Of a DNA stretch of 32,000 bases, positions 2-31,703 are shown one piece after another. Each line of letters starts with the position of its first letter. Position 1 is the stretch's first letter. A model generated the notes under the pieces. That model was not told the origin of the DNA. It worked only from the letters and a program-made list of their open reading frames with translations, and did not search any database. This DNA is from Nostoc punctiforme PCC 73102 (lineage in GTDB: Bacteria > Cyanobacteriota > Cyanobacteriia > Cyanobacteriales > Nostocaceae), in contig NC_010628.1 in the NCBI RefSeq assembly GCF_000020025.1, positions 7,800,001-7,832,000 on the forward strand. The letters are read 5' to 3'. A program made the translations under genes and the position numbers.

Positions 2-505
2 GCTACACGCTTGCGCGAACGAGGTTACAGTGAAGCGGCATTTGAAATTTTGCAAGCTGGAGATCATTCAGATTTTCAGCGATCTGTTAGGGCAGATTAC
101 TTTCGTGATTTAATTCCGGTTTATACTTTTGCCACACTTCATGCTATTCAAGCAGAAGAGCGCTTACAATCTGGTTTCTGCATTTATTTTTTAGTATCGG
201 ATGGAAAAGTTAGCAATATTAACTGGACTGAACGCGCTCGTCAGCATTTGATTAATCCTGATTCAGACTCTCGTATTCATCCTTGCTTACTAGCTGTACT
301 ACGGGGCTTGCATTTTATTGAAGCTGAACGAGGTGTGTACAAAAGTCAACTTAGCCCAGTACTAGATCCATTTAGTTGGATATCGCCTAATACAGTTGAG
401 GAGGCTGGTGAAGTGAAAGTTCTCCACTCCCGCCGCAAAGGACAGGTATTACTTAATTATCGCGCTGTACTCACCTACGTTTCTCAAGTTCTGCACAGGA
501 AGTAA
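2..505 (+). CDS. Hypothetical protein, probably 5'-truncated by the window edge; first member of a coupled pair with the giant helicase-like ORF
   Basis: The frame is open from nt 2, with no stop before the listed TTG at 11. The stop TAA (503-505) overlaps the ATG (505-507) of the next ORF. I recognised no family motif. Confidence 0.5.
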   Translation, partial: ATRLRERGYSEAAFEILQAGDHSDFQRSVRADYFRDLIPVYTFATLHAIQAEERLQSGFCIYFLVSDGKVSNINWTERARQHLINPDSDSRIHPCLLAVLRGLHFIEAERGVYKSQLSPVLDPFSWISPNTVEEAGEVKVLHSRRKGQVLLNYRAVLTYVSQVLHRK

Positions 506-3500
506 TGGAATCATCCTTTCTACAACAAGCCTCTATTTGGGGGCAGATATTTGAAATTGCTGTTAAACGCGGTGTTTTACAACAGTTGATTCACAGAAAC
601 TTACTGTTGAACGATCATCCTGTTTTCCAGCTTTGGCAATCTCACAAAAATGCAGATGTCTCCCACCAACTGGTGAAAGCATTCAAAATAACAGATCCCA
701 ATCACAAAGAATGGGTAGAAACAATGCTGCGTCATCTGCTGGTACTTGGCTATGGTTTAGGTTGGACAACAATGCGTGAATGTCTCCACCACAGTCAAAT
801 TAAACAACCTAAACTAGAAGCAATTTGGTGTCCATTGACATTGCCAGGGCAGCAAATGCAACGAGATGAAGAAAAAGAAGAGACAGCAAAAGCATTTCAA
901 GAAACTTTCAATATACCAGGGAAACCAGATGAGAACTTAGTCAACCGAGGACAACCAGCCAGAGCCGATTTTATTTTATGGCTGTCCAACGAATTTAGTT
1001 CCCACAGAAACACAGATAAAGATGAAGTAATACCCTCTAAAGACTTTAAAAATGTCTTCTCCCAGCCAAATGATCTAAAGCACAAAAAAATTGAGAATTT
1101 AATTCTCTGTTTGGAATTTTCGTATAACGCACCCATCAAATTTGCAGATTTTAAAAATGAAGCTCCTCACACAGAAGAAATAAGTCGTTATGCACGTTAC
1201 ATGGAATCACGGGGGGTCTTCTCTAGAGTTTGTGCAGAGGTTGAGGGTGAAGAATTTTCTCTCTCTAAAAGGCTGGAAAGTTTTCTGTCAGCATTTAGCG
1301 GTCAAGATAAACCATTATTCAAGCTCTGTCAGTCATCATCTTATACTGAGCGCCTGATTCATGTGTTACGCAAGTGTAAACGCTTAGAAGGAAGTTGTCA
1401 TGCTAGAGCGATCGCTGTCACATCCAATGGTATTGAAAGTCTTGCTGCTCAATTCTGGGGTGTGGAATCTGAACCAGATACTAGAGCCAAGTTAATGAAA
1501 TCTTTGGGGCAAGCATATTGCAAGGCTAAACATTCAGATGATGATGTGCCGCTCGATCTAGATGCAGAAATTCTTTTGGTGTTCAAGAAGCTCTTAGGAG
1601 GACTACCGTCTGCTTTTAAAGAACAAGCAAAGTCTCTAGCTGAAAAACCGCCTTTAGGTCAATACTCCCACTTTCTCTTTCATGAAAATGTGACGGACTT
1701 TTACAACCCAATGGGTGAAATTAGCAAGGATGAGGCGATCGCATCTATTGAAGACCACAACGCATTACATGAGTTTTTTGGTAGCGACCCAGTTACACAA
1801 ATTGCTAATTTTGTCAATCAAATCAATCCTAACAAGGAAACAATTCCTCTGCGACAAGTACACGAAGCAGCAGTTTTTGTCGGTCTGAGTGCTGCTCAAG
1901 TCGGTAAAATTAACGTCCTAGCTTTGGAAGGAAATCCGGGTATTGGTAAAACTACTGCTGTGATTAAATTTCTTAAACAGCAGTCTCAAGGCTTCTTATT
2001 TTTTTATCTCAGTCCGCGAGTTGTAATTAATCGAGATGTTACTGACAAACTTGCTAGAGAAAACGAGCAACCCACAGGGATATTAACTATCACCAGTAAT
2101 AGAAATTTGATTGATGCAGTTCCCGAATGGTATAAAAAACAGGTTCAGCAAAACAATTTTCCACCCTATAGTATCGATAGTGCTGTTGTTGTTGATGGTA
2201 TTGAAAAACTCATACGTCCTCTTGGCAGTATCTTCTTCCTAACGCCAGAACAAGAACTTGATATTGATTGCAATATAGTCGGCTCGACTCGCTTTAAACG
2301 CCGTCTTAACGAAAGAGATTACAGCATAGAATCTCTTTACAGCCCTGGTGTATTGGGTACGATCGCAAAGTCAGCCCGCAAATTGCTAGAAGCCAACCCG
2401 CAGGTTAATCAGCTAGTAATGACTGCTGCTATTCAAGGTTATCGGACACTCAACGATCAATCAACCACAGTTAATGCCTTCAATAACTTATTTGCAAAAA
2501 AAGCCGATACTAAAGCTGGAAAGAATGAACGTTCAGCATTTGCAGCGCGGATTCCCACTATAGTTGTCATGGTAGATGAACTCGCTGGTGATGGTGCAGG
2601 AGCGCCCTTTGTCCGTAAGGTAGCAGAATGGTTGGAACAGCAATTTATTAAACCTTTTGATACAAATCGATCTCCGTTTAAAATTGTGCTAATTCTGGCT
2701 GATGCCTCACTCAGCAATGAAGTTGTATTGGATAGCTTTTTGAACTCAGGCGATCGCGCTCCTGATAAAGTACTAATAAGTCAGAGTCGAGGTGAAGCAG
2801 CGTTTCGGGTAACAGGCACTCATACAAAAATTGGCCCCAAAAAACACCCAACACTACACGTCATGACAAATAGCTACCCCGCCAGTAAACTCACTATTGA
2901 CTACAGTATTAGACTCTCTCCCATTAAACCAGGCCAAAACAGTGACGGTAGAGAGCAGACAATTAGACAAGCAATTCGAGAAAAATCAGAAGAAGAGTCA
3001 CTGACAAATGCCTACTTAGAAATTAAGGATGGTTTACACAAGGGAGTAGAGCAGTTAATTTTCTTTGCTCAGGATAAAGCTTTTCTACGTCAGTTACAGG
3101 AAAAATTGACCACTGGTAAAGAAGCTCTCCTAAAAAGGGGAGAGGTGGAGGTTTTGGATCAAAGTGTATCACCCGATCAGCGATTGAAATTAGTAAAGCC
3201 GCCACGACGAGATGAAGTTAGGGTTTTCCTCATGACTTCTTCAGGTGCAAGAGGTGTTTCTTTCCCAAAAACAGATTGCATTATTGCTGCAATCCCCCGA
3301 TTTAATATTGAAGCCGCTTTAATGGAAATAGCGCAATTAATTTACCGTGGTAGAGGAATGTATACAAATCCAGAAACCGGAATGGAGGTTTCTGGAGATA
3401 ACAAAGATAGACGGTTAGTTATGCTAATCAATGATTTCATCATTGAAAGAGAGGACATTGATGCCAAAAGACTATGGTTGCGTCAGTCCAGCGATTTATT

Positions 3501-4461
3501 GACTTTGCTGGTAATGCTGCGCTCTACAATTCATACTCGCATTAAAGGTGATGCAGGACTTAATAAAAATAGAATTGCATTTGTCCCAGTTGGCTCTGTT
3601 GGAGATGAAGAATTATTGCGTTTGATGTCTGATGATTTATTAGATTTATTGCGTGAAGCCAAAATTTTTATCAGCGATAGTCACCCTCAAGAAGCAAAAG
3701 CAATTGTGAAAAAAGCCGAGCAGTTAACTGCAAACATCTTTAAGCATTTTGACTTGAGAGGTCAATCATTAGAGAAAAATGCCAAATCTTATGCAAATTA
3801 TCAAACTTTACAAGCTTTGGTTAAAGCTGTTTCTAGAATTCAGAGTTCTTTATTGCCATCTTTAGATAGTGATGCGCTAGAGATACCTGATAGTCTAACT
3901 TGTATAGGCCCTTTCTGGATAGAAGATTGGAGTGATCGCCAAACTGAAGAAATATTTAGCTTTGAAGCATGGAAAGCTGATATTAAACAAAATAGCAGTC
4001 GTCTTTTAGGACTATTAAAAGAAATTGCCGAAAGCAAGAAGTTCAAATTTCCCTCAAAACTCAAACGCCCTGCCAACGAACTATATAAGTTATTGAGTCG
4101 GGAACAAGAAGGATTTGTTATTGAATCTTCCACACGTCAAGCATTGAAAACTAAAAATATAGTTGTAGGTTTACCCCTCGACTATCCCCATTTCTGGAAT
4201 GAGCAATCAGAAGATGATACCCGCCAACAAGTATTAGAAGATCCCCAAGCTTGGAGAAGTGCGCTAGGACGTTCTCTAACTCCTCAAGGCTTAATCATAC
4301 CTGTAGTACCTCACTATCGAACATTTCCTTGGGTAGCTGTGGCAGGTAGGCGGATTTTTACACAATTAGAAACAGTTTTTAGCGATCGCTACTTTATGGC
4401 ATCCAGTGAATTAAATCTTCTTAATACAATATTGCTTGAAGATGAAGCAGATAACAAATAG
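505..4461 (+). CDS. Large SF2 helicase-like P-loop NTPase (1318 aa) with unassigned N-terminal (about 450 aa) and C-terminal (about 360 aa) regions
   Basis: Motifs are in canonical order. Motif I / Walker A is GNPGIGKTT (nt 1930-1956). Motif Ia-like is FFYLSPRVV. Motif II is VVMVDELAG with D691-E692 (nt 2575-2580). Motif III-like is LILADASLS. Motif V-like is LMTSSGARGVSFP (nt 3232-3267). Motif VI-like is QLIYRGRG (nt 3334-3357). It is a single uninterrupted 3.96-kb ORF. Confidence 0.8.
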   Translation: MESSFLQQASIWGQIFEIAVKRGVLQQLIHRNLLLNDHPVFQLWQSHKNADVSHQLVKAFKITDPNHKEWVETMLRHLLVLGYGLGWTTMRECLHHSQIKQPKLEAIWCPLTLPGQQMQRDEEKEETAKAFQETFNIPGKPDENLVNRGQPARADFILWLSNEFSSHRNTDKDEVIPSKDFKNVFSQPNDLKHKKIENLILCLEFSYNAPIKFADFKNEAPHTEEISRYARYMESRGVFSRVCAEVEGEEFSLSKRLESFLSAFSGQDKPLFKLCQSSSYTERLIHVLRKCKRLEGSCHARAIAVTSNGIESLAAQFWGVESEPDTRAKLMKSLGQAYCKAKHSDDDVPLDLDAEILLVFKKLLGGLPSAFKEQAKSLAEKPPLGQYSHFLFHENVTDFYNPMGEISKDEAIASIEDHNALHEFFGSDPVTQIANFVNQINPNKETIPLRQVHEAAVFVGLSAAQVGKINVLALEGNPGIGKTTAVIKFLKQQSQGFLFFYLSPRVVINRDVTDKLARENEQPTGILTITSNRNLIDAVPEWYKKQVQQNNFPPYSIDSAVVVDGIEKLIRPLGSIFFLTPEQELDIDCNIVGSTRFKRRLNERDYSIESLYSPGVLGTIAKSARKLLEANPQVNQLVMTAAIQGYRTLNDQSTTVNAFNNLFAKKADTKAGKNERSAFAARIPTIVVMVDELAGDGAGAPFVRKVAEWLEQQFIKPFDTNRSPFKIVLILADASLSNEVVLDSFLNSGDRAPDKVLISQSRGEAAFRVTGTHTKIGPKKHPTLHVMTNSYPASKLTIDYSIRLSPIKPGQNSDGREQTIRQAIREKSEEESLTNAYLEIKDGLHKGVEQLIFFAQDKAFLRQLQEKLTTGKEALLKRGEVEVLDQSVSPDQRLKLVKPPRRDEVRVFLMTSSGARGVSFPKTDCIIAAIPRFNIEAALMEIAQLIYRGRGMYTNPETGMEVSGDNKDRRLVMLINDFIIEREDIDAKRLWLRQSSDLLTLLVMLRSTIHTRIKGDAGLNKNRIAFVPVGSVGDEELLRLMSDDLLDLLREAKIFISDSHPQEAKAIVKKAEQLTANIFKHFDLRGQSLEKNAKSYANYQTLQALVKAVSRIQSSLLPSLDSDALEIPDSLTCIGPFWIEDWSDRQTEEIFSFEAWKADIKQNSSRLLGLLKEIAESKKFKFPSKLKRPANELYKLLSREQEGFVIESSTRQALKTKNIVVGLPLDYPHFWNEQSEDDTRQQVLEDPQAWRSALGRSLTPQGLIIPVVPHYRTFPWVAVAGRRIFTQLETVFSDRYFMASSELNLLNTILLEDEADNK

Positions 4462-14161: not shown

Positions 14162-14533
14162 TCAATTTGACAGTAGATAGCGAATACCTATCATTAGCAC
14201 AAAGATGCCATACAGCTTTTTCATCAACTCACTGCTAATAAACGGCTGATTTGCAAACAATGCCCCGAAAAAGTTACCCACGATTAAACCAACTGCAATA
14301 ATCAGGGCATATTTGATATTAAGATTACCGTTGCGATGGTAAACCAAGGCTGCTAAAATCCCGATTGGCAAAATTTGAGCAGCCACAGATGTTCCTGTAG
14401 CTAACTTCTGATCCAAACCAATTACTAACACCATTGCCGGAATCATAATTGCGCCGCCACCGATACCAAACATTCCACCAGCAATGCCAGAAACTAAACC
14501 GATTAACAACAGTTGGATCGAGATATTAGACAT
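14162..14533 (-). CDS. Half-size TauE/SafE (DUF81) family membrane protein
   Basis: 123 aa and highly hydrophobic, with about 4 predicted TM segments. It has Gly-rich GIAGGMFGIGGGAIMIP and the GTS motif seen in TauE/SafE proteins. Confidence 0.7.
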   Translation of the reverse strand: MSNISIQLLLIGLVSGIAGGMFGIGGGAIMIPAMVLVIGLDQKLATGTSVAAQILPIGILAALVYHRNGNLNIKYALIIAVGLIVGNFFGALFANQPFISSELMKKLYGIFVLMIGIRYLLSN

Positions 14534-17174: not shown

Positions 17175-18407
17175 GTGGCTGATGATGAACGCATAGTCAA
17201 TGCACAACAGATAAATCCAAAAGACTTTTCATGGGGATTATGGCCTGTTGTGCCACTCTACCCTTATGGCAGGCGGCAGACAATCCGCAAAGAAGTGATT
17301 AAGGACACAATCTGGAATTTTGACCAGATTCAGGGCATTTTCTACGTAGTTGTGCCAATTCGCATGACTGTTGTTAAGCTCGAAGCCGGGGGTCTTCTCA
17401 TCTATGCGCCTGTTGCACCAACCCCAGAGTGCATCAGGCTTGTGAATGAGTTGGTGGCGGAACACGGTAAGGTTAAGTACATCATCCTGCCGACTATCTC
17501 CGGTATAGAACACAAAGTCTTCGTCGGCCCCTTCGCCAGATATTTTCCGACTGCACAGGTGTTTGTGGCTCCCCATCAGTGGAGTTTCCCGCTAAATCTG
17601 CCCCTTAGCTGGCTTGGTTTACCCCCAAAACGGACTCAGGTACTCCCAGAAGATAGTAGCAAAACACCCTTTGCTGACGAGTTTGATTATGCAATGCTGG
17701 GTCCCATCGACCTTGGCCCTGGTCGATTTGCGGAAGTTGCTTTTTTCCACAAGCGATCGCATACTCTTTTAGTAACAGATTCTGTGCTTTCTATCCCAGA
17801 CGATCCACCTGCGATCGTTTTATTAGATCCATATCCCCTACTATTCCATGCCAAGGATCGTGCTTCTGATATTGTTGCAGACATTCAGGTAAATCGCCGT
17901 AAGGGTTGGCAGCGCATCTGTCTGTTTGCTTTGTACTTTCAACCAAGCGCACTAAATATACCCCAATGGAATAAGGTGTTGCAAGATGCCTTAAAAGCAC
18001 CAGAACGCTCAAAGAAAGCTTACTTTGGATTGTATCCTTTTAAATGGAATCCAGATTGGCAGCGATCGTTTGATGCCCTGCGAGGTGATGGGCGGTTGTT
18101 TGTTGCACCAATTTTACAGACGTTGATTCTCAACCGCGCACCACAAGAAACCATCGACTGGGCTGATAAAGTTGCTAGTTGGGACTTCGAGTGGATTATT
18201 CCCTGCCACTTTGATGCACCGATAAAAGCCCAAGCCTATCAGTTTCGTCAAGCTTTCTCTTTTTTGGAAAAGCAGCCTGCTGTTAGTGGGGGTTTATTCA
18301 GCAGTAGCAGCTATCCCTTACCAGAGGAAGATTTTAAAGCACTTAGGGAAATCGATACAGGTTTAAATAAGTTGGGCATTGTGCCAGCACCAAAGGAGAA
18401 GGTGTAG
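17175..18407 (+). CDS. DUF4336 domain protein (conserved in cyanobacteria and plastid lineages)
   Basis: Recalled family blocks: WPVVPLYPYGRR, IWNFDQ and RMTVVKL. GTG start. Confidence 0.65.
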   Translation: MADDERIVNAQQINPKDFSWGLWPVVPLYPYGRRQTIRKEVIKDTIWNFDQIQGIFYVVVPIRMTVVKLEAGGLLIYAPVAPTPECIRLVNELVAEHGKVKYIILPTISGIEHKVFVGPFARYFPTAQVFVAPHQWSFPLNLPLSWLGLPPKRTQVLPEDSSKTPFADEFDYAMLGPIDLGPGRFAEVAFFHKRSHTLLVTDSVLSIPDDPPAIVLLDPYPLLFHAKDRASDIVADIQVNRRKGWQRICLFALYFQPSALNIPQWNKVLQDALKAPERSKKAYFGLYPFKWNPDWQRSFDALRGDGRLFVAPILQTLILNRAPQETIDWADKVASWDFEWIIPCHFDAPIKAQAYQFRQAFSFLEKQPAVSGGLFSSSSYPLPEEDFKALREIDTGLNKLGIVPAPKEKV

Positions 18408-22554: not shown

Positions 22555-24108
22555 ATGCCTCTGTCGCGCATAGTAACGCTAATTGTTGGTCTGATAGTCA
22601 TTTTGGGGCTAGCCCTATGGCTAATTGATTCCCTATCACGCCTTTATTGGCAATTGTCCTATTCGCCGTTGCTTGGCAATTTGCTGCTGTTGCTGCTGAT
22701 TGTTCTTATAGGAGCCTTGGTTGCGGCTTTTGTCTATTATGTATTGGTAATTCAAGCTGGGGAAAAGCGATCACGCCGCAACCCCAAGCGAGTAACTGCG
22801 GCGCAAATTCCTGCTGCTAAATCTGACGCTGCTTCTACAACTCTCCAAGCTGTGCGCCAACAGGTAGCGCAAATTCAAGATGAAGTCACACGTCAAGCTT
22901 TATTAAGTCGATCGCGGGAGATTGAAGCGAATTTAGCACGCGGTGAAATTCAAGTAGTGGTATTTGGTACGGGGAGTGCTGGCAAAACTTCCCTAGTTAA
23001 TGCAATTATGGGACGCATGGTAGGTCAAGTAGATGCACCGATGGGTACAACCCAGGTTGGAGAAACCTATTGTCTGCGGTTGAAGGGATTAGAACGCAAG
23101 ATTTTAATTACAGATACGCCAGGGATTTTAGAAGCAGGGGTGGCGGGAACAGAACGAGAACAAATGGCGCGAGAACTGGCAACAGAAGCAGATTTACTGT
23201 TATTTGTGGTGGATAATGACTTACGACGCTCAGAATATGAGCCGTTGCGCGGGTTAGCAGAAATTGGTAAGCGATCGCTCCTAGTTCTCAACAAAACCGA
23301 TTTATATACAGATGAAGATAAAGAATCCATCCTCGCTAGGTTGCGTCAACGGGTACGGGGATTTATTGCTACTAATGATGTGGTGGCGATCGCAGCTAAT
23401 CCCCAATCTGCACAACTAGAAACCGGCGAAACTTACCAGCCGGAACCAGATATTGTCCCTTTACTGCGACGCACGGCTGCTGTTTTACGCGCCGAAGGTG
23501 AAGATTTGGTGGCGGATAATATTCTTTTGCAATCTCTGCGATTGGGAGACGAGGCGCGAAAACTCATCGATGGTCAGCGTCGCCGTCAAGCTGACAAAAT
23601 CGTAGAACGATTCCAGTGGATTGGTGCCGGTGTAGTATCAGTTACGCCAATACCAGTGGTAGATTTATTAGCGACAGCAGCTGTTAATGCTCAAATGGTT
23701 GTGGAAATTGGCAGAGTCTACGGCTGTGAATTGAATATGGAACGGGGACGAGAGTTAGCTCTTTCTTTAGCGAAAACTATTGCTAGTTTGGGCATTGTCA
23801 AGGGAGCAATTCAATTATTATCTACAGCGTTGCAACTTAATGTTGCTACCTTTCTTATTGGTCGGGCGATTCAAGGTGTGACAGCAGCTTATTTAACGCG
23901 AATTGCTGGTAAAAGTTTTATTGAATATTTTCGTCACGATCAAGATTGGGGTGATGGGGGAATGACAGAAGTTGTGCAGAAACAGTTTCAAATTAATCGC
24001 CGAGATGAATTTATTAAAGCTTTTATTCAAGAAGCGATCGCGCGAGTGGTGAAGCCGTTACAAGATAAATCTGAAGTAATTGAACATGATGAAGAAGTCA
24101 ATAGTTAA
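22555..24108 (+). CDS. Membrane-anchored GTP-binding protein with a C-terminal DUF697-like domain
   Basis: Two N-terminal TM segments. G1 is GTGSAGKTS, G3 is DTPG, G4 is NKTD. The C-terminal hydrophobic region resembles DUF697/YcjF. Confidence 0.8.
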   Translation: MPLSRIVTLIVGLIVILGLALWLIDSLSRLYWQLSYSPLLGNLLLLLLIVLIGALVAAFVYYVLVIQAGEKRSRRNPKRVTAAQIPAAKSDAASTTLQAVRQQVAQIQDEVTRQALLSRSREIEANLARGEIQVVVFGTGSAGKTSLVNAIMGRMVGQVDAPMGTTQVGETYCLRLKGLERKILITDTPGILEAGVAGTEREQMARELATEADLLLFVVDNDLRRSEYEPLRGLAEIGKRSLLVLNKTDLYTDEDKESILARLRQRVRGFIATNDVVAIAANPQSAQLETGETYQPEPDIVPLLRRTAAVLRAEGEDLVADNILLQSLRLGDEARKLIDGQRRRQADKIVERFQWIGAGVVSVTPIPVVDLLATAAVNAQMVVEIGRVYGCELNMERGRELALSLAKTIASLGIVKGAIQLLSTALQLNVATFLIGRAIQGVTAAYLTRIAGKSFIEYFRHDQDWGDGGMTEVVQKQFQINRRDEFIKAFIQEAIARVVKPLQDKSEVIEHDEEVNS

Positions 24109-24397
24109 ATAATTCAAAATTCAAAAACAAATGCGCTTCCTGTTATTAGGTGTGCAAAAGTCAAGGTAAAAGAAGAATCGATCAAACAGCAACTCTTTAA
24201 AACGGATATTTAAAGTGTATTAGGTCCATTTTTTTGCTGTTGTAATTTAGCCAAAAGATGGTGAAATCACATAATGCATCATTAGATTTTCTATTTTCCC
24301 AAGTTGTTTAGGTAAGATTCTTTTTCACAAATAATTGATATAGTTAAGTAAAACTTATGCAAATCAGTCAATTTATTTGAATTCTTTATAAAGTATG

Positions 24398-24423
24398 TTA
24401 ACTGTCTTAACTGTCTTAACTGT
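24398..24423. repeat. Tandem 9-mer (TTAACTGTC, about 2.9 copies) in the AT-rich region upstream of the A-T-R gene
   Basis: Read directly: TTAACTGTC TTAACTGTC TTAACTGT. Confidence 0.8.
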
Positions 24424-24660
24424 TCTTGCATTCCTATTAAAAGTCTGAGACGTTAAGAAAGATAAAGTGTAGTGTTATGCATTCCAATCAATTTGGAGAG
24501 CTTAAACAATTACAACGACAGTAACAACTAGTAAACTAAAGTCTACTTACAAGCCGCAGCAAGCATCTGGAACGCTTAAGCAAGTCTTTGTTAGTTTCGC
24601 TTGCTGCAATTAGGTATGAAAAGTTTTGTCCTATAAATCTTTGCTCAAAAAATAAATTCT

Positions 24661-27600
24661 ATGATTTTTGGCAGTCTATACCCTGACATTCCTATCCCTA
24701 AACAGCCACTGACAGAATTTGTCTTGCAACGAGCAATAAATTTAGCCGACAAACCAGCCCTTATTGAAGGACTAACTAACAGGATAATAACATATAAACA
24801 ACTAGTCGAGTCAATTCGTAAAATTGCTTGTAGCTTGGCAGCGCGTGGCTTCTCCAAGGGAGATGTTTTAGCTATTTACAGCCCTAATATTCCGGAATAT
24901 GCGATCGCTTTTCATGCCGTAGCAACTTTAGGTGGGATTATCACCACAGTCAACCCATCCTACACCGCAGAAGAACTGGCATATCAACTCAATGATGCTG
25001 GAGCAAAACATCTCATCACCATCCCAGACCTTGTAGGGCAAGCATTAGAAGCGATTGGTCACTCAAAAGTAGAGGAAGTATTCGTATTTGGTGAAGCAGC
25101 TGGAGCTACCCGATTTTCTGTACTTTTAGAAGGTGAAGGAGAAATACCAAAAGTACAAATCAATCCACAAGAAGATTTAGTAGCCTTGCTCTACTCTAGT
25201 GGTACTACTGGTATGCCTAAAGGTGTAATGCACACCCACCATTCATTTGTGGCCAACTTTCACCAATTCCAAAACTGCGAGCCAGTCAGCAAGGCTGATG
25301 CAATTATCGGAGTTTTACCTTTTTTTCACGCCTATGGCCTGGTCATGCTGAATTACAGCCTGGCTTGCGGTGCTACTGTTGTGACGATGCCGCGCTTTGA
25401 TTTAGAAGCCTTTGTGAGCCTGATTGAAAAGCATAAAATCACCCGTATTCACATCGTTCCGCCAATTTTGCTGGCATTAGCAAAGCAGCCAATAGTAGAT
25501 AAATACGATCTTTCGAGCTTGCGAGTGCTGACTTCTGGAGCAGCACCACTTAGCCATCAATTGATCGAAGAGTGCGAACAGCGTCTGACTAATTGCGTTG
25601 TTAAGCAAGCATACGGAACGACAGAAACCTTTGTGACCACCTACACTCCAGATGAACGTGACAAAATCAAGCCTGGTTCAGTAGGTCAATGTCTCCCTCA
25701 TGTTGAATGTCAAATCGTAAATGTCGATACCCAACAACCATTAGGTTTTAATCAATCAGGAGAGTTGTGGGTACGCGGGCCGCAGATCATGAAAGGCTAT
25801 TTGAATAATCCCGACGCAACTGCCAGCACAATCAATCGAGATGGTTGGTATCACACTGGTGATATTGTCTATATTGACGAAGACGACTACTTTTACATAG
25901 TCGATCGCATCAAAGAATTGATTAAGTGTAATGGCTACTCCATAGCACCGGCAGAATTAGAAGCAGTATTGTTGAGTCATCCGGCTGTCGCTGATGCTTG
26001 TGTAGTCAAGAGTCCTCATCCTAGTAGTGGGGAAGTTCCCAAAGCTTTTGTCGTACTAAAAGCCGCTGCCACTGCACAGGAAATTATGGAGTTTGTCGCT
26101 GGTCAAGTTGCACCGCATAAAATGATCCGCAGACTTGAATTTGTGGACAAAATTCCCAAATCGCCTTCTGGCAAAATTTTGCGCCGCATATTGGCACAAC
26201 AAGAACTGACAAATATCAAAGCAGCATCCTCTGACGAGCAACCATTGGAGCAACGATTAGAATTTTTAGAACAGTTAGATGATGGTTCTTTGGGTCAACG
26301 TCAAGAACTATTAATTGCTTACATTCGAGAGCAATTTGTCAAAGTTTTAGGCATCAATACTTCTCAAAATCTGGATATAGAGAAGCCTTTGCATGAACTG
26401 AGGCTTGATTCTCTCATGAATATCGATTTGAAGAATCGTATTGATACTGAATTAGGGGTAGACATACCCATAGATATGTTGCTTGGTAACTCCAATATCA
26501 ACCAATTGGTAAATTTATTGCTTCAGCAACTAACAGCGAAAAACACAATTATCTCAAAAAAATCATCGGCTGAATTAGCAACAGATTTGAATTCAGAAGT
26601 TGTTTTAGACTCTACTATATTTCCTGAATACCCATCTGAGTCATTTGTAACTGAGCCTGCTGCTATTCTCTTAACTGGAGCTACAGGCTTTTTAGGAGCT
26701 TTTTTACTTCAAGAACTGCTGTTAAAAACCCAGGCGGATGTTTATTGTTTGGTACGTTCTACTGATGCTAGATCAGGGAAGATGAGGATTCAAAATAACT
26801 TAGAATCCTATGGAATTTGGCATGAAGATTTTGCTGAGAGAATTATTCCTATTTTAGGTGATTTATCTCAACTAATGTTAGGTTTGTCATTACAAGATTT
26901 TCAAAAAATGAGCAGCATCATTGATACGATCTATCACAACGCTGCTTGGATTAACTATGTTTATCCCTATTCAGCATTAAAGCCTACCAATATTTTAGGA
27001 ACTCAGGAAATATTGAGATTGGCGAGTCGTGTAAAAATCAAGCCTGTACATTATATTTCCACTATTGCTGTTTTTGAGTCACCTGCTTATTGGGGAAAGG
27101 TAGTAACTGAATCCGATCAACTCGATCATAGTGAGGGAATGAAACTTGCTTACTCCCAAAGTAAATGGGTGGCAGAAAAGTTAGTGATGTTAGCGAGTGA
27201 CAGAGGAATTCCAGTTTCAATTTATAGATCACCATTTATTTCTGGGCATAGTCAAACAGGCGCTTGGTATAAAGATGATGTGATTTGCCGCACCATCAAA
27301 GGCTGTATACAAATTGGGAGCATGACAGACATCACTGACACCTTAGATTTAGCCCCTGTGGATTACCTCAGCCAAAGTATTGTGTATTTATCACAGCAAA
27401 AAGATTCTCTTGGCAAGGCTTTTCACTTAAATAATCCTCAATCTATTTCTTGGCGAGAACTAACTGATTTTATCCGTTCTCTTGGCTATCAGATTGAGCA
27501 TATTGCTTATCACGATTGGCAAACACAACTAAATAATTCTGTCCGCTCTCAGGAAAATCCTTTGTATCATCTCTTGCCTTTTTATCAAAAGCATTATCAA

Positions 27601-27765
27601 CAATCAACCGATCCCAAAATTAGTTGTTTAGCAACACAAAATGCTCTTACAGTAAGTTCAATAAGGTGTCCTCCAGTGAATGAACAATTGCTCAATACCT
27701 ATTTTTCCTATTTTCTTCGTAGTGGTTGGTTGGGCGTGTCGCTACCCTCGAATAAATTGGCTTAA
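24661..27765 (+). CDS. NRPS-like carboxylate reductase: 4-coumarate-CoA-ligase-like adenylation domain, carrier domain and thioester reductase (A-T-R)
   Basis: The 4CL-like N-terminus is MIFGSLYPDIPIP. AMP-binding motifs are SSGTTGMPKG (nt 25195-25224), YGTTE, GWYHTGD and PKSPSGKILRR. The carrier Ser is in LRLDSLM (Ser584, nt 26410-26412). The reductase has LTGATGFLG (nt 26674-26697) and YSQSK. Confidence 0.9.
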   Translation: MIFGSLYPDIPIPKQPLTEFVLQRAINLADKPALIEGLTNRIITYKQLVESIRKIACSLAARGFSKGDVLAIYSPNIPEYAIAFHAVATLGGIITTVNPSYTAEELAYQLNDAGAKHLITIPDLVGQALEAIGHSKVEEVFVFGEAAGATRFSVLLEGEGEIPKVQINPQEDLVALLYSSGTTGMPKGVMHTHHSFVANFHQFQNCEPVSKADAIIGVLPFFHAYGLVMLNYSLACGATVVTMPRFDLEAFVSLIEKHKITRIHIVPPILLALAKQPIVDKYDLSSLRVLTSGAAPLSHQLIEECEQRLTNCVVKQAYGTTETFVTTYTPDERDKIKPGSVGQCLPHVECQIVNVDTQQPLGFNQSGELWVRGPQIMKGYLNNPDATASTINRDGWYHTGDIVYIDEDDYFYIVDRIKELIKCNGYSIAPAELEAVLLSHPAVADACVVKSPHPSSGEVPKAFVVLKAAATAQEIMEFVAGQVAPHKMIRRLEFVDKIPKSPSGKILRRILAQQELTNIKAASSDEQPLEQRLEFLEQLDDGSLGQRQELLIAYIREQFVKVLGINTSQNLDIEKPLHELRLDSLMNIDLKNRIDTELGVDIPIDMLLGNSNINQLVNLLLQQLTAKNTIISKKSSAELATDLNSEVVLDSTIFPEYPSESFVTEPAAILLTGATGFLGAFLLQELLLKTQADVYCLVRSTDARSGKMRIQNNLESYGIWHEDFAERIIPILGDLSQLMLGLSLQDFQKMSSIIDTIYHNAAWINYVYPYSALKPTNILGTQEILRLASRVKIKPVHYISTIAVFESPAYWGKVVTESDQLDHSEGMKLAYSQSKWVAEKLVMLASDRGIPVSIYRSPFISGHSQTGAWYKDDVICRTIKGCIQIGSMTDITDTLDLAPVDYLSQSIVYLSQQKDSLGKAFHLNNPQSISWRELTDFIRSLGYQIEHIAYHDWQTQLNNSVRSQENPLYHLLPFYQKHYQQSTDPKISCLATQNALTVSSIRCPPVNEQLLNTYFSYFLRSGWLGVSLPSNKLA

Positions 27766-27849: not shown

Positions 27850-28332
27850 ATGTCTGACATTAAAAAACTGGGTTCATCATGGATCATAAATTGGTTTTTT
27901 GGTTTTAACCAGATTCCTACAAACGAAGATAGCAGCATTTATATGAAATCTGTTTTAACTTGTGCTAAAGCAGATGGAGTTATCTCACCAGAAGAAAAGG
28001 ATTGGGCACTTGGATTCTGTGCATCTTGGGGAGTAGCAGACTGGGTGATCGAAGATCTAAAAACTTATGAAGCTGATGAAGCTCTAGAAGAAGTAATTGC
28101 TCGCTCTCCTCAAGTATCTATGGCACAAAGAGATATACTTCTGTCTGCAATTTGGGTTTCTGCTGCCGATGGAGAACTTCATGAAAAGGAAAAAGCAAAA
28201 ATTCGGAAAATGGCTACTATTTTAGGGATAAAAGAAGAAATAGTAGACCAGTTGGAGCAGCTACAACAAGAAGAAGCAGCACTACGACAGAAACGCCTTA
28301 ACCTCTTATATCCTCAGAAAAGCCCCTATTAA
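27850..28332 (+). CDS. TerB-like (tellurite-resistance TerB fold) small protein, paralog 1
   Basis: Two TerB-style repeats, CAKADGVISPEEKDW and VSAADGELHEKEKAKI. It is a paralog of 31209-31703. Confidence 0.65.
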   Translation: MSDIKKLGSSWIINWFFGFNQIPTNEDSSIYMKSVLTCAKADGVISPEEKDWALGFCASWGVADWVIEDLKTYEADEALEEVIARSPQVSMAQRDILLSAIWVSAADGELHEKEKAKIRKMATILGIKEEIVDQLEQLQQEEAALRQKRLNLLYPQKSPY

Positions 28333-28443
28333 TTAATCATCTGGCGTTGCTGATTGCAATATGAATATTGGTGTAGAGATGCTTCACAGAAGATTTGAAT
28401 ACCTGAATTCAGCAATGCCATTTTCTCTTGATTGAGAATTTTT

Positions 28444-29487
28444 ATGTTTCAAACTCAATTACAACATCCTACAAGTAAAGACGAAATGCAGACTACACAA
28501 ACATTAAAACAAATTATCGCTGGTGCTTGGATTACGCAAGGTATTTATGTAGTTGCTCAACTTGGTATTGCAGATTTACTTAAGGATGGTTCTAAAAGTT
28601 ACGATGAATTAGCAACAAAAACTGGTGTAGATGCCCGATCCCTCTACCGACTACTACGCGCCCTTGCCAGTGTTGGTATATTTGCTGAAGGTAATTCAGG
28701 CTACTTTGAGTTAACACCCGTTGCCGAAAGTTTGCAAAGCGATCGCACCGATTCCCTACGTGGTTATGCTATCAAGTCTGGTCAAGCCTGGGAATGGCAA
28801 CCTTGGGGACATCTACTTGAAAGTATCAAAACCGGAAAACCTGTATTCAAAAATATTTTCGGGATGGAGAGATTTGATTACCTAGCCACAGACCCTTCTG
28901 CATCTAAAATATACACCCAAGCTATAAGTAGTATTTCTGGCGAACAAGATGCAGCGATCGCAGCTGGTTATGACTTCTCATTCATCCACAACTTAGTTGA
29001 GGTTGGAGGTGGAAATGGTACTTTGATAGCCTCGATTCTCAAATCGAATTTGACAATGCAGGGGATTTTATTTGATTTACCCCATGTAGTTGCAGATGCC
29101 AAACCTGTGATTGAAGACCTGGAACTACAAGATCGTTGTCAACTAGTCGGTGGGAACTTCTTTGAATCAGTACCCACAAGTGGAGATGCTTACTTGCTAC
29201 GGTATATTATTCACGATTGGGATGATGAAAGAGCGATCGCCATCCTGAAAAATTGCTACCAAGCGATGCAGCCTGACGGCAGATTGCTGCTAGTCGAAAT
29301 GGTTATACCTCAAGGCAACGAACCATTCTTTGGCAAACTCCTCGACTTGCAGATGCTCGTGAATTATGGCGGCCGTGAACGGACTCAAGCTGAGTATCAA
29401 GTCCTATTAAAAACAGCAGGTTTCTCATTGACAAAAATTTATCCAGTAGCACCTCCAATCAGCATAATTGAGGCTATTCGCCTATGA
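28444..29487 (+). CDS. Class I SAM-dependent O-methyltransferase (COMT/Methyltransf_2 type with an N-terminal dimerisation domain)
   Basis: A winged-helix dimerisation region (GIADLL...LYRLLRALASVGIF), SAM motif LVEVGGGNG, DLPHVV, and a C-terminal GRERTQAEY. ATG 28444 is preferred over the listed TTG 28432. Confidence 0.85.
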   Translation: MFQTQLQHPTSKDEMQTTQTLKQIIAGAWITQGIYVVAQLGIADLLKDGSKSYDELATKTGVDARSLYRLLRALASVGIFAEGNSGYFELTPVAESLQSDRTDSLRGYAIKSGQAWEWQPWGHLLESIKTGKPVFKNIFGMERFDYLATDPSASKIYTQAISSISGEQDAAIAAGYDFSFIHNLVEVGGGNGTLIASILKSNLTMQGILFDLPHVVADAKPVIEDLELQDRCQLVGGNFFESVPTSGDAYLLRYIIHDWDDERAIAILKNCYQAMQPDGRLLLVEMVIPQGNEPFFGKLLDLQMLVNYGGRERTQAEYQVLLKTAGFSLTKIYPVAPPISIIEAIRL

Positions 29488-29600: not shown

Positions 29601-30776
29601 ATGAAGCAAAATTTGATTGAAACTTTACTAGACATTTCAGAACAGGAAAAAGAGCGGCTTTTAGCAGCCATCCAAATTGATGCTATTACTGAAAGTCCAT
29701 ATCTAGAAAAGGAATCAACAGAATCACAAGAGTACAGACAATTTTTCCAATCACTCTTCCAAGAGATACTTCATTTTGAAGATAACGAGCAGCAATTACT
29801 TTTTGAAATAGCAAGATATGTGCGTCATAAGTATTTGGAAAATAAAGGAAATTTAAGAGGTGTGATTGAGATTACTAATGCTTGCGAAAGGAGTTGTAAT
29901 TATTGTCCAATGAGAATTGAAAATGAAGAATTAGGAGATCGTTACAATTTTTCTAGCGAAAAAATATTAGAAACCGCCATAGAAATCAAAGAAGCAAAAA
30001 TTCCCATTGTATTCATTCAAGCAGGTGAAATTAAAGCAACGACTAAAACCGTATCTAGAGCCATACCTAAAATTAGACAACTTTTTGAGAATAACGTCAT
30101 AATCCTTCTAAATCTTGGTGATAAACCTAAAGAAGATTACACAATACTCAAAGAAGCTGGCGCAAATCAATACATTATTAAATTTGAAACGAGCAATTGG
30201 AATTTACACAAACAAGCTAGAGGATACCTCTTATCCGATCGCCTCAATAGAATCGATGATCTATTAAGTTTAGGATATGAGGTGGGAAGCGGAACAATTG
30301 TCGGTTTAAAAGCAGTAAATGCCAATGGGAAAATCGAAATTGAACAAACTCCAAAGATGCTGGCGAACGATCTCCTACTTGCCATGAGGAAAAAAGTTCA
30401 TATGTGTAGTGCGTCTCCTTTTGTACCTGGTAAAGGTACTCCACTAGCTCAAATGAGTGCGGGCAACGCTAGTATGACTTTAAATTGGATGGCTTTAGCC
30501 AGAATTATGATGCCAAAAGTTATGATACCTAGTGTAAGTGCTCTTAATGTTTTATTAGGACAAGATGGTCAGTTAAAAGGACTGCAAGCAGGGGCAAATA
30601 CGATCACCGTGAATTTTACCCCTCCCAACTATCAAGACCAGTATGCTATTTACAGTAAACAAAAACGGTACAAAGTCAAATACGAATATGCTTTAGATAT
30701 TATGGAAAAAGCAGGTATCGAGCCAATTTTATTGCCTAACATGCCTAGCCGGAGTTTTTTACTCTCTCAAAATTAG
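29601..30776 (+). CDS. HydE/PylB-like radical SAM enzyme with a ~60-aa N-terminal extension
   Basis: CERSCNYC (CX3CX2C, nt 29883-29906). From memory it is collinear with Thermotoga HydE blocks: IEITNAC..C.YC, IQAGE, EAGANQYIIKFETSN, LGYEVGSGTIVGL, SPFVPGKGTPLA, ALARIMMP and GANTITVNFTP. Confidence 0.8.
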   Translation: MKQNLIETLLDISEQEKERLLAAIQIDAITESPYLEKESTESQEYRQFFQSLFQEILHFEDNEQQLLFEIARYVRHKYLENKGNLRGVIEITNACERSCNYCPMRIENEELGDRYNFSSEKILETAIEIKEAKIPIVFIQAGEIKATTKTVSRAIPKIRQLFENNVIILLNLGDKPKEDYTILKEAGANQYIIKFETSNWNLHKQARGYLLSDRLNRIDDLLSLGYEVGSGTIVGLKAVNANGKIEIEQTPKMLANDLLLAMRKKVHMCSASPFVPGKGTPLAQMSAGNASMTLNWMALARIMMPKVMIPSVSALNVLLGQDGQLKGLQAGANTITVNFTPPNYQDQYAIYSKQKRYKVKYEYALDIMEKAGIEPILLPNMPSRSFLLSQN

Positions 30777-30799
30777 AACTTCCCACTGCTTAAAGAGGA

Positions 30800-30904
30800 C
30801 TTACGCAACTGAGGGAGAACTGAATGCGGTGGTTCAAGTCTCCCGATCAAGCGCAGCAATTATTAGCAGCAAAATTAGCCCTGTTCTGTCACTTTTCGGA
30901 TTAA
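30800..30904 (+). pseudogene. IS6-family-like transposase C-terminal remnant
   Basis: It translates to RGLTQLREN*MRWFKSPDQAQQLLAAKLALFCHFSD*. This resembles the conserved IS6-type C-terminus (..RER.MRRFKS...AQRFLS.....NHF) with an in-frame stop. No upstream transposase body is present. Confidence 0.4.
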
Positions 30905-31208
30905 GCCAGTAGTAAATAAAACCTTTTACCCAGAACAATAAAATTTTTTAAATTGATTCATTGCACTAATTAGATTATTGAATCCAAGCAATAAATTGAG
31001 CAGTGAATTAAGTTATATTTCTCTTAATAAATTAGCATTTATTTATCATCAAAAATAGCTTTTTAAATTTAAAGGCTATTGTATTTGAATGCATTTTTGA
31101 ACATTGAAATAATACAATAAATAAGATTTTTTTAATGTTCAACTATTAGCTTTTTATGCAATGATTAAATTTGTAAATTACAAAATTAAGTAATTTTAGG
31201 AAACAGCA

Positions 31209-31703
31209 ATGACGACAGATATCAAAAAGCAAGAAGATTTAGGCATTTCGTGGTTGTTCCAAGAACAGTTTGGTTTTTCACAGATTCCATTAAACCAATC
31301 TTATGAAGCTTACTTTAAATCGCTGCTTGTTTGTGCTAATGGCGATGGCACATTAGCAGATGCAGAAAGAGATTGGGTGATTGGATATGCCTCTGCCTAC
31401 AACCGCGATCCTGCAATTATCGAAAAACTCAAAGTTTACAAGGCTGATGAAGATCTAGAGACACTATTTAGTGGAGATCCTTTAATTATTGAAACACGCC
31501 GTTCCCTACTCCTTGATGCAATACAAGCTTGTGCTGCTGACGGCGAATATAGCGAAAAAGAACGGGCGGTAGTACTCAAAGGAGCAAAGGCACTCAATAT
31601 TTCTGAAGACGAGTTGAAAAAGATTGAAGAAATCTATTTTGAGACAGTCAAACTCCGTGAAAAACGTCTAGCAGTCCTGTATCCCAAAGGTTTACCTTAC
31701 TAA
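31209..31703 (+). CDS. TerB-like small protein, paralog 2
   Basis: It has CANGDGTLADAERDW and CAADGEYSEKERAV repeats. It shares the N-terminal FGF.QIP and the C-terminal LR.KRL..LYP...PY with 27850-28332. Confidence 0.65.
   Translation: MTTDIKKQEDLGISWLFQEQFGFSQIPLNQSYEAYFKSLLVCANGDGTLADAERDWVIGYASAYNRDPAIIEKLKVYKADEDLETLFSGDPLIIETRRSLLLDAIQACAADGEYSEKERAVVLKGAKALNISEDELKKIEEIYFETVKLREKRLAVLYPKGLPY

Follow-up and report, generated by a model that had tools for sequence, protein, structure and literature searches.

The window considered here (32,000 nucleotides of Nostoc punctiforme PCC 73102, contig NC_010628.1, positions 7,800,001 to 7,832,000 of the forward strand) carries at positions 29601-30776 (+) a gene for a radical S-adenosylmethionine (SAM) enzyme, rSAM below. 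Its nearest characterised relative is HydE and, as judged from profiles, trees and aligned residues, it is not itself HydE. The first-pass annotation of this DNA read it as a HydE/PylB-type enzyme put to new use where [FeFe]-hydrogenase is lacking; what emerges, on the same grounds, is not a single stray HydE but a divergent, Nostocales-restricted branch of a broad and unnamed HydE-sister family. The enzyme belongs to a familiar class, in a family that, like its reaction, is uncharacterised. In Nostoc the gene stands in a cassette with an O-methyltransferase (OMT) and a three-domain adenylating, carrier and thioester-reductase (A-T-R) enzyme, and the whole is read here, with a probability that we put at about 0.6, as a HydE-sister radical SAM enzyme at work in a module that would make a small methylated aryl aldehyde or alcohol.

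The limits assigned to the gene at first pass are exact: an open reading frame (ORF) of 391 aa with an ATG start. Its orthologs, in clusters of 391-397 aa at 87-97% identity, keep the full length, and dN/dS against three of them is 0.16-0.27; the ORF is real, maintained and under purifying selection. All six motif blocks that had been named were located in the translation: CERSCNYC (aa 95-102), FIQAGE (138-143), ETSN (196-199), GSGTIVGL (229-236), PFVPGKGTPLA (273-283) and GANTITVNFTP (331-341). The first of these holds the CX3CX2C cluster motif (C95, C99 and C102; 29883..29906, +, read from the sequence). The protein has four cysteines in all, C269 being the sole one outside the motif; with one cysteine beyond CX3CX2C no auxiliary Fe-S cluster is possible, leaving one cluster only. 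The Pfam domain PF04055 scores 52.4 bits (cut-off 29.5), which together with CX3CX2C places the protein in the radical SAM superfamily, and the BATS domain (PF06968) passes marginally, at 22.9 against 22.2. An AlphaFold2 model (pLDDT 93.4, pTM 0.93; input alignment of 33 sequences) is a complete (beta-alpha)8 barrel of eight strand-helix units. Judged by these signs, rSAM is a functional member of that superfamily, with one [4Fe-4S] cluster and the barrel of the BioB/HydE/PylB class.

Two embellishments set the Nostocales proteins apart in alignment and model. The N-terminal extension (aa 1-55; 29601..29765, +), which the first-pass annotation described as acidic and about 60 aa long, is indeed acidic (12 D/E against 5 K/R in the first 58 aa, for a net charge of about -7), and somewhat shorter: about 55 aa relative to a typical family member and about 33 relative to Thermotoga maritima HydE (TmHydE). 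It is predicted to be helical (pLDDT 89-95), is lacking in most family members, and is conserved in seven aligned sequences, namely the window's and those of six ortholog clusters. An insertion of 10 aa (aa 239-248, VNANGKIEIE; 30315..30344, +) follows the GxIVGL strand; it is confined to the Nostocales clade, is a gap in all 30 other aligned family members, and is modelled as a beta-hairpin (E237-239 / E245-248). The window protein also reads GLKA in place of GLPG.

HydE, whose substrate has been assigned only recently, works by attack of a 5'-deoxyadenosyl radical on a metal-bound cysteine sulfur. The collinearity with HydE on which the first-pass annotation was built is confirmed: residues 37-352 align with TmHydE (phmmer, 6e-46), about 31% identical and collinear over some 315 residues, with the same full barrel, the same position of CX3CX2C, and the same QxGE, ETx, GxxxVGL, PFxP..TPL and GAN blocks. 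Sequence matches among solved structures come in the order TmHydE, PylB, BioB; Foldseek with the rSAM model also puts TmHydE first (TM-score 0.85-0.88, 30-32% identity), with PylB at 0.82 and BioB at 0.82-0.84; and the NCBIfam ranking is HydE (TIGR03956, 185.6 bits), PylB (99.6), BioB (76.8), all of them under cut-off. For TIGR03956 the cut-off is 254.6, so that rSAM falls 69 bits short; a TmHydE ortholog run as control scores 372.1, and other members of the family score 205-254.6. No model of NCBIfam release 20 reaches its cut-off on rSAM and Pfam supplies only the generic Radical_SAM and BATS domains; the profile search places the protein neither in BioB nor in another characterised subfamily.

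Purpose-built hidden Markov models (HMMs) sharpen the distinction. One was made from 12 source-named HydE proteins (Thermotogae and Firmicutes, 55-96% identical to TmHydE), the other from 82 family sequences with the Nostocales orthologs excluded. The window rSAM scores 416 bits on the family HMM against 225 on the HydE HMM; family members score 469-568 and 219-305 on the two, respectively; and HydE proteins score 545-628 on their own HMM and 290-316 on that of the family. In neighbour-joining trees (BLOSUM distances, no bootstrap support) rooted on HydE, the family is monophyletic and nine Nostocales sequences form a long branch inside it; that branch has no close sister clade in these trees, being sister to about 170 other sequences.

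Individual residues add to this. T134, R155, R279 and M291 (TmHydE numbering) are invariant in 12 of 12 HydE proteins; at the corresponding positions the family has L (94%), S (93%), Q (99%) and T (98%), and the window rSAM has L169, Q190, Q324 and T336. M291 belongs to the backflow valve of HydE, and the S3 site comprises one Thr and two Arg, given without numbers (PMC10114646); from the alignment we infer these to be T134, R155 and R279. Many other positions are retained, of which the following are examples. M224, the thioether ligand of an Fe(CO)2CN species in HydE (PMC10114646), persists as M268 and is invariant in the family alignment; R54/R86, Q107/Q140, E161/E196, R180/R214, Y303/Y348 and Y306/Y351 (TmHydE/rSAM) are invariant in HydE and family together, T162 is likewise identical in both, and R159 and T269 are conservatively exchanged for K194 and S313. 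As far as alignment goes, the HydE scaffold is partly kept in the family and the HydE-specific positions are replaced. The C-terminal auxiliary-cluster cysteines of TmHydE (C311, C319, C322) have no counterpart in rSAM, which has no cysteine after C269; because that cluster is dispensable and missing in a subset of real HydE proteins (PMC10114646), this loss was not counted against HydE. The missed TIGR03956 cut-off, the separation by HMMs and trees, and the replacement of four HydE-invariant residues together uphold the first-pass view that the protein would not be a hydrogenase maturase.

The surroundings are a weaker guide. As the first-pass annotation remarked, there is no hydA, hydF or hydG in the window, here meaning the scanned ORFs of at least 100 aa (the antisense ORF 17238-17576 was left out); the same ORFs include no second BATS-type radical SAM protein. 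No HydF, HydG or [FeFe]-hydrogenase appears in the Pfam-annotated gene tables of three orthologous loci (L001, L003, L091). The partners of the window rSAM, unlike those of HydE, are the OMT and the A-T-R reductase instead of HydF, HydG and HydA. The premise that cyanobacteria have no [FeFe]-hydrogenase agrees with published surveys, which report it absent from all cyanobacteria examined (PMC4463661), and in phylogenetic profiling TIGR03956 proteins tracked HydF in 189/189 genomes (PMC3226654). A caveat comes from Sporomusa acidovorans (L090), in which a true HydE (P0209) has no hydF, hydG or hydA within 8 kb: with hydE thus unlinked from its partners, the local neighbourhood is a weak test of HydE identity.

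If rSAM is not a HydE, with what does it work? The first-pass annotation set the gene between an O-methyltransferase and an A-T-R enzyme and proposed that its product might perform C-S or C-C chemistry or a rearrangement on a small molecule. A small-molecule cassette that unites a radical SAM enzyme of HydE/PylB/BioB class with A-T-R and OMT is borne out; the gene order is not, since rSAM does not lie between the OMT and A-T-R genes. The order, all on the forward strand, is A-T-R (24661..27765), a TerB-like small protein (27850..28332), OMT (28432..29487), rSAM, a 432-bp AT-rich spacer, and a second TerB-like protein (31209..31703), the OMT gene being adjacent to rSAM and the A-T-R gene two genes upstream. 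Beyond that, the syntenic Nostoc loci L009 and L091 have only genes for kinases and sensor proteins. The order A-T-R, OMT, rSAM is kept in orthologous loci of a JGI Nostocales genome (L001), Scytonema sp. PRP1 (L003) and Nostoc sp. ATCC 53789 (L091), while the flanks differ among the three and IS605/TnpB genes lie near two of them; with its core kept, its flanks changed and IS605/TnpB nearby, this looks like a mobile cassette. Its genes are a probable operon. Scans of the window for promoters and terminators stayed at background level, Rfam found no riboswitch or other RNA element there, and the intervals 24109-24660 and 30777-31208 hold no convincing small ORF for the precursor of a RiPP, a peptide made by ribosomes and modified after translation.

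The A-T-R enzyme (1034 aa) consists of an A domain of the 4-coumarate:CoA ligase (4CL)/luciferase type, a carrier (T) domain and a thioester reductase (R) domain (Pfam AMP-binding 8e-95, PP-binding, and NAD_binding_4 2e-66). The T domain appears intact (DSL present), and the R domain scores 331.2 bits on TIGR01746 (cut-off 213), with TGATGFLG and YxxxK (YSQSK) present. The enzyme thus resembles the aryl-acid and carboxylic acid reductases (CARs) of bacteria and fungi in its A-T-R order, its phosphopantetheine site, and its R domain of the short-chain dehydrogenase/reductase type with the same two motifs; unlike theirs, its A domain falls, at about 40% identity, in the plant 4CL/luciferase clade (plant 4CLs are its top PDB matches, at 1e-121), and is not of the CAR type (NF041592, below cut-off) or the nonribosomal peptide synthetase (NRPS) type. 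We take the hydroxycinnamate pocket of Pt4CL1 to be formed by Y236, S240, K303, G306, G331, P337 and V338, with S240 and K303 binding the 4-hydroxyl; all seven identities agree with the numbering of the 3A9U sequence. The window's A domain keeps only Y236 and G331: S240 becomes M (V in a MAFFT alignment), K303 becomes T, G306 becomes A, and a 4-aa deletion follows G331, in the P337/V338 region. Loss of the residues that bind the 4-hydroxyl would fit, weakly, a methoxylated substrate.

The OMT is a class I enzyme of COMT/Methyltransf_2 type (Pfam Methyltransf_2, 3e-51, plus a dimerisation domain), its nearest PDB relatives being natural-product enzymes of the methyltransferase fold (6c5b at 2e-91, AlpH, CalO6, MmcR), and it lies directly upstream of rSAM in every orthologous locus (L001, L003, L091). 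(Its start is ambiguous: TTG at 28432, giving 351 aa, or ATG at 28444, giving 347 aa, which is the JGI/NCBI call in orthologs.) The first TerB-like protein (160 aa; Pfam TerB 2e-9) is optional, present in L001 and not in L003 or L091; the second (164 aa; 3e-5) is its paralog, falls into the same ORF cluster (c69), and is found downstream of rSAM in L009, L010 and L091. The two paralogs bracket the OMT-rSAM pair and have in common the motifs W..FGF.QIP (N-terminal) and LYP...PY (C-terminal). Across cassette variants TerB-like genes track A-T-R rather than rSAM; they are also found in L092 and L095, which are without rSAM.

Those variants are instructive. A-T-R relatives are far more numerous in Nostocales than rSAM: about 45 clusters, at 65-91% identity. 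In Scytonema sp. HK-05 (L092 6840-12742; A-T-R 75% identical) the cassette consists of TerB, a small ORF, A-T-R and a salicylate synthase (TIGR03494, 335 bits against a cut-off of 325; best PDB matches MbtI and Irp9); in Nostoc sp. C052 (L095 6380-13493; 77%) it consists of TerB, A-T-R, a chorismate-binding enzyme taken as isochorismate synthase, an aldo-keto reductase and an isochorismatase; in Scytonema sp. PCC 10023 (86%) A-T-R is accompanied by an FAD oxidoreductase, and in Calothrix sp. HK-06 (66%) by an ApbA-like reductase. Across these comparisons the A-T-R lineage stays constant, as the core of a cassette that is otherwise modular. Because HK-05 and C052 carry chorismate-utilising enzymes, their A-T-R probably reduces small aryl acids and, by extension, so does the window's; the substrate in HK-05 and C052 is probably a chorismate-derived hydroxybenzoate, and the predicted product is of the salicylaldehyde or dihydroxybenzaldehyde type. 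These salicylate/isochorismate cassettes, themselves uncharacterised, resemble that of the window in their homologous A-T-R, their TerB-like companion and their architecture of "aryl acid in, aldehyde out"; they differ in that their acid-supply genes are chorismate-utilising enzymes. OMT and rSAM fill the slot that the acid-supply genes hold in HK-05 and C052, and most likely supply or tailor the acid that A-T-R takes up.

The family to which rSAM belongs extends far beyond Nostocales. A search of 5.8 billion proteins returned seven ortholog clusters and then, after a gap in identity from 87% to 50%, hundreds of proteins that are 313-367 aa long and 41-50% identical; "biotin synthase" or "radical SAM protein" is the name given to many. 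A pattern scan with one genome per species found relatives in at least 139 species, among them Streptomyces, Amycolatopsis, Allokutzneria, Micromonospora, Nocardia, Burkholderia, Paenibacillus and Salipaludibacillus, as well as Verrucomicrobiota, Acidobacteriota, Alphaproteobacteria, Chloroflexota and about 12 cyanobacteria (including Crocosphaera, Cyanothece, Desmonostoc, Chroococcopsis and Gloeomargaritales). Family-invariant residues include the CPMR that follows the cluster motif and M104, K194, S270, V312, S313, Q324, T336 and R356, and the window rSAM carries all eight of the latter. The boundary with HydE is not a sharp one. An exhaustive profile search over 1.84 billion representatives found 706 clusters with E <= 1e-30, their scores declining smoothly from 475 bits into the HydE range, and clades P0380, P0381 and P0383 score nearly equally on the family and HydE profiles: the HydE-like radiation thus comprises several unnamed clades rather than one sharply bounded sister group. 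The closest non-orthologous relative examined, P0010 (L089 10001-10942; 49% identity), scores exactly at the TIGR03956 cut-off (254.6). In the literature we found no HydE homolog described in a biosynthetic cluster, no characterised family member, and nothing relevant on Franean1_4349.

What accompanies the family was surveyed at 89 loci, whose ORFs were called and clustered, the recurrent clusters being annotated with Pfam. Context types were assigned by hand from the clustered ORFs, with the antisense ORFs of high-GC genomes filtered out. Context A is the Nostocales one: A-T-R, (TerB), OMT, rSAM, (TerB). Context B, in Alphaproteobacteria and Verrucomicrobiota, is an aryl-polyene-like group of genes: MMPL, LolA, an acyltransferase, an AMP-ligase, an acyl carrier protein and an FAD halogenase-like enzyme, the rSAM being divergent, then GT2. 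Context C, in cyanobacteria and Verrucomicrobiota, has an LTXXQ protein, rSAM, a class I methyltransferase, EamA, a HemN-like radical SAM protein and an FHA-ABC transporter. Context D, in actinomycetes and Burkholderia, has a Frankia_peptide-like ORF, a B12-dependent radical SAM protein, a protein without assignment, a hydrolase, rSAM, MFS, an AMP-ligase, a peptidyl carrier protein, a 2-oxoglutarate oxygenase and an Asp hydroxylase, some loci adding a TPMT/TehB-like methyltransferase or an OMT. Context E, in Firmicutes, joins a B12-dependent radical SAM protein, an AMP-ligase and rSAM, sometimes with an OMT, and context F, in actinomycetes and Chloroflexota, has a polyketide synthase (PKS), rSAM, an AMP-ligase and a hydrolase.

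Within 5 kb of rSAM the density of AMP-binding ORFs is 5.7 per 100 kb, and in the same loci it is 0.88 per 100 kb at 5-10 kb, a 6.5-fold difference; 46 of the 89 loci have such ORFs, among them almost every locus of types A, D, E and F, and five context types are represented overall. Methyltransferases from three unrelated families adjoin rSAM in types A and C and in some D and E loci. The coupling extends to covalent fusion: rSAM to an AMP-ligase in P0362 (771 aa) and P0396 (813 aa), and rSAM to a class I methyltransferase of the TehB/Methyltransf_25 type in P0365, P0376, P0379 and P0384. P0369 (825 aa) is an apparent double radical SAM protein, whose N-terminal cluster motif resembles that of the HemN-like protein of type C. 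For every one of the fusion proteins the family HMM gives a higher score than the HydE HMM does. They are predicted proteins, subject to errors of gene calling, though the same architecture recurs in separate 50%-identity clusters; and as the loci are phylogenetically non-independent, so that counting them exaggerates the number of separate events, it is the five context types with a ligase and the six fusion clusters that serve as independent units. Neighbour enrichment and fusions together make rSAM, a methyltransferase and an adenylating enzyme a recurrent functional module, which apparently acts on one small carboxylic acid. On present comparisons the coupling is to "a methyltransferase" and not to one orthologous methyltransferase: the window OMT was tried as an ortholog of the rSAM-adjacent OMTs of Exiguobacterium and Kitasatospora and rejected (34-36% identity, BLAST 216-222 bits, compared with 310 bits in phmmer for the unrelated 6c5b).

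Some details of context C stand apart from this. It is found in Crocosphaera chwakensis CCY0110 (L071 7366-13162), in L059, L064, L073, L075 and L083, and in the Verrucomicrobiota loci L021-L051; its methyltransferase has a signal- or anchor-like N-terminus, its LTXXQ protein is periplasmic, and its second radical SAM protein, of about 490 aa, was considered as HydG-like and rejected, the motif HIPFCEKKCVFCHY looking HemN-like when judged by eye. P0310, P0325, P0330, P0335, P0340 and P0345 are relatives of the A domain (about 50% identity) fused to alpha/beta-hydrolases that JGI names "pimeloyl-ACP methyl ester carboxylesterase"; taken with the methyltransferases and hydrolases that neighbour the rSAM family, this echoes the methyl-ester logic of BioC/BioH.

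How might the Nostoc module work? The radical enzyme would generate a 5'-deoxyadenosyl radical, act with it on a small carboxylate-bearing substrate, and so make or remodel a hydroxy-aryl acid before adenylation; the OMT would methylate a hydroxyl of the same scaffold; A-T-R would activate a small, probably aromatic, acid, tether it and release it reductively as the aldehyde or alcohol; and the likely product would be a small methoxylated aryl aldehyde or alcohol. Order of steps, aromatic substrate and type of reaction are all things that we infer. The near-invariance of the family residues across very different pathways suggests that the substrate is a common small metabolite and not a pathway-specific late intermediate; as the reductase is found only in type A, a substrate derived from the aldehyde cannot be general; and the partner swap in the sister cassettes and the aryl-polyene-like context B point to an aromatic acid. 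We favour, though only tentatively, an order in which rSAM comes ahead of adenylation and supplies or modifies the acid.

Known systems offer partial precedents. PylB, the methylornithine synthase (PDB 3T7V), has a barrel of the same class (TM-score 0.82) and exemplifies a single-cluster radical SAM enzyme that makes, from a primary metabolite, a building block for activation by an ATP-dependent ligase, which is the logic preferred here; it differs in sequence (23% identity; rSAM scores 99.6 bits against the 348.2 of TIGR03910) and in its partner, an ATP-grasp ligase in place of the 4CL type, and the cassette has neither pylC nor pylD (no ATP-grasp or PylD-like gene). In the NosL/NosI/NosJ/NosK/NosN module of nosiheptide, a radical SAM enzyme makes an aryl acid from an amino acid, an AMP-ligase loads it on a carrier, and an alpha/beta-hydrolase and a HemN-like radical SAM protein act nearby. 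The same partner types surround the family in contexts C and D, an analogy of logic and not homology: NosL, unlike the window rSAM, belongs to the ThiH/HydG branch, with 15-16% identity and a TM-score of about 0.6 to the model. ArsL, the radical SAM enzyme of arsinothricin C-As bond formation, which goes with ArsM and a permease, was tried as a model for the combination of radical SAM enzyme, methyltransferase and transporter and set aside for its different architecture; BgArsL has 428 aa, with CX3CX2C at residues 194-201 (PMC8552651).

Several observations weigh against the methylated aryl aldehyde/alcohol reading. The A-domain pocket differs between rSAM-type and salicylate-type cassettes at 4-5 positions (V, A329 and FVTT against L, I329 and CV[SN]L), so that the window's acid would be related to salicylate and not identical with it; the partner swap fits "tailoring" as well as "supply", and Nostoc could draw 4-hydroxybenzoate or another acid from primary metabolism. 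The AMP-ligases beside family members are only 20-32% identical to the window's A domain, plant 4CL being closer; co-evolving ligase partners were considered and rejected on this account, and with ligases so diverse there is no single substrate common to them. None of the 26 context C loci has an AMP-ligase. P0010 sits in a purine-biosynthesis operon (purL/Q/D, folD, purN, purC/E, a TrmB regulator, rSAM, purM, purH), and is a candidate either for mis-annotation as HydE or for a hint at an unrelated role of its clade. No family member has a known substrate, and no literature on the family was found. Finally, the window clade is a long branch, at most 50% identical to all else and with a unique insertion, and family-level inferences may not transfer to it.

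Of the other explanations, one gives rSAM the sulfur chemistry of HydE and a late, or on-line, tailoring role: the released aldehyde would condense with cysteine to a thiazolidine, or another cysteine S-conjugate would form, the radical would attack its sulfur, and the resulting nucleophile would then be methylated. The fused or adjacent methyltransferases of other clades are of TehB/TPMT type, families known for S-, Se- and Te-methylation. HydE, moreover, is the closest characterised relative and does exactly such a reaction on 2-substituted thiazolidine-4-carboxylates (PMC10114646), attacking complex-B in the same manner, and much of what is shared with it (the residues invariant in both, the retained M224, the conservative replacements of R159 and T269) speaks for this explanation in so far as these residues line the sulfur site. 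The R domain, however, is confined to the Nostocales cassette while the family residues are shared by contexts without a reductase, and the window's own methyltransferase is a COMT-type OMT instead of one of the TehB/TPMT type; we consider this explanation rather unlikely. Less probable again is a PylB-like mutase, which would rearrange a proteinogenic into a non-proteinogenic amino acid for activation by the adenylating enzyme. PylB is the second-best match by family and fold, and PylB/PylC logic suits the association with ligases, and the carrier proteins, of types B, D and F; yet the A domain is not of the amino-acid-activating NRPS type, the sister cassettes would feed homologous A-T-R enzymes with chorismate-derived aryl acids, and the TIGR03910 score is far below its cut-off (348).

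That rSAM is after all a genuine HydE, or a maturase of another organometallic cofactor, with its partners elsewhere in the genome, is very improbable. Its first rank in the NCBIfam, sequence and fold searches, the unlinked hydE of Sporomusa and the real HydE proteins that have no auxiliary-cluster cysteines (PMC10114646) can be cited for it. They are outweighed by the 69-bit shortfall on a model whose proteins tracked HydF so faithfully (PMC3226654), the four replaced HydE-invariant residues, the absence of [FeFe]-hydrogenase from the cyanobacteria examined (PMC4463661), the fixed position of the gene beside OMT and A-T-R, and the presence of obligate aerobes such as Streptomyces among the hosts of the family. 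Biotin synthase, or another sulfur-inserting enzyme, has the slightest chance of all: it is what JGI, NCBI and UniRef call the homologs, and the BATS domain matches weakly; yet TIGR00433 gives 76.8 bits against a cut-off of 225, the lone cysteine outside CX3CX2C leaves no auxiliary [2Fe-2S] cluster as sulfur donor, the fold alignment with BioB has an identity of only 18-20%, and HydE homologs have been mis-annotated as BioB before (PMC10114646).

The rest of the window, which is 95.4% identical in DNA sequence over 10 kb to Nostoc sp. LEGE 12450, holds by Pfam housekeeping or unrelated genes among its ORFs of at least 100 aa: a response regulator, a GST, an inositol monophosphatase, a ketopantoate reductase, an ABC transporter, a P450, an FMN reductase, a formamidase, a DUF4336 protein, a GNAT protein, a histidine kinase and a GTPase. 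The last of these (22555-24108, directly upstream of the cassette) is membrane-associated, with MMR_HSR1 and DUF697 domains, and belongs to the slr1306 family. As a candidate HydF it was rejected (51.5 bits against a cut-off of 325.6; slr1306/DUF697-type), and its weak HydF match is potentially misleading; synteny of this gene extends to the closest Nostoc strains alone (L009, L091) and is lost in L001 and L003. Upstream of it, at about 22000, an indel of some 525 bp separates the window from LEGE 12450 (L009 1874-2399), the flanking DNA being 95-98% identical. At 14162-14533 (-) a 123-aa fragment of a TauE/SafE sulfite exporter covers only positions 1-110 of the 237 in the profile and probably represents a truncated gene. 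At 505-4461 (+) a protein of 1318 aa, preceded by an overlapping 164-aa ORF without matches, has a weak Helicase_C match (5e-6) and no other Pfam domain; it is possibly a helicase of a defence system or mobile element.

A large HydE-sister family in which many HydE-invariant residues persist while T134, R155, R279 and M291 are replaced shows the HydE scaffold in use outside hydrogenase maturation. It also calls for care in annotation: members of the family are often mislabelled "biotin synthase", and those at the HydE cut-off could be called HydE in hydrogenase-free organisms. Should rSAM turn out to do no more than tailor a minor aromatic aldehyde, the outcome would be a useful correction of annotation and little beyond. 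The means of finding out are at hand: 1) with three to five genes on one strand, the Nostoc cassette offers a compact way in, and a close relative of it exists in the culturable, fully sequenced Nostoc sp. ATCC 53789; 2) the sister cassettes with salicylate synthase are a natural "swap" control that narrows the class of substrate; 3) the fusions of rSAM with ligase and with methyltransferase are ready-made constructs for enzymology. A bolder proposal, which we regard as doubtful, is that this is a new radical SAM family with an undescribed reaction, making or remodelling small aryl acids in place of chorismate-utilising enzymes; a sharper variant of it would have a HydE-style radical attack on a heteroatom such as sulfur in an organic substrate, with the methyltransferase capping the product. 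If it is true, such a family, bound up with adenylating enzyme and methyltransferase as far as gene fusion, would serve aryl-polyene-like, PKS, NRPS-like and peptide-linked pathways across many phyla.

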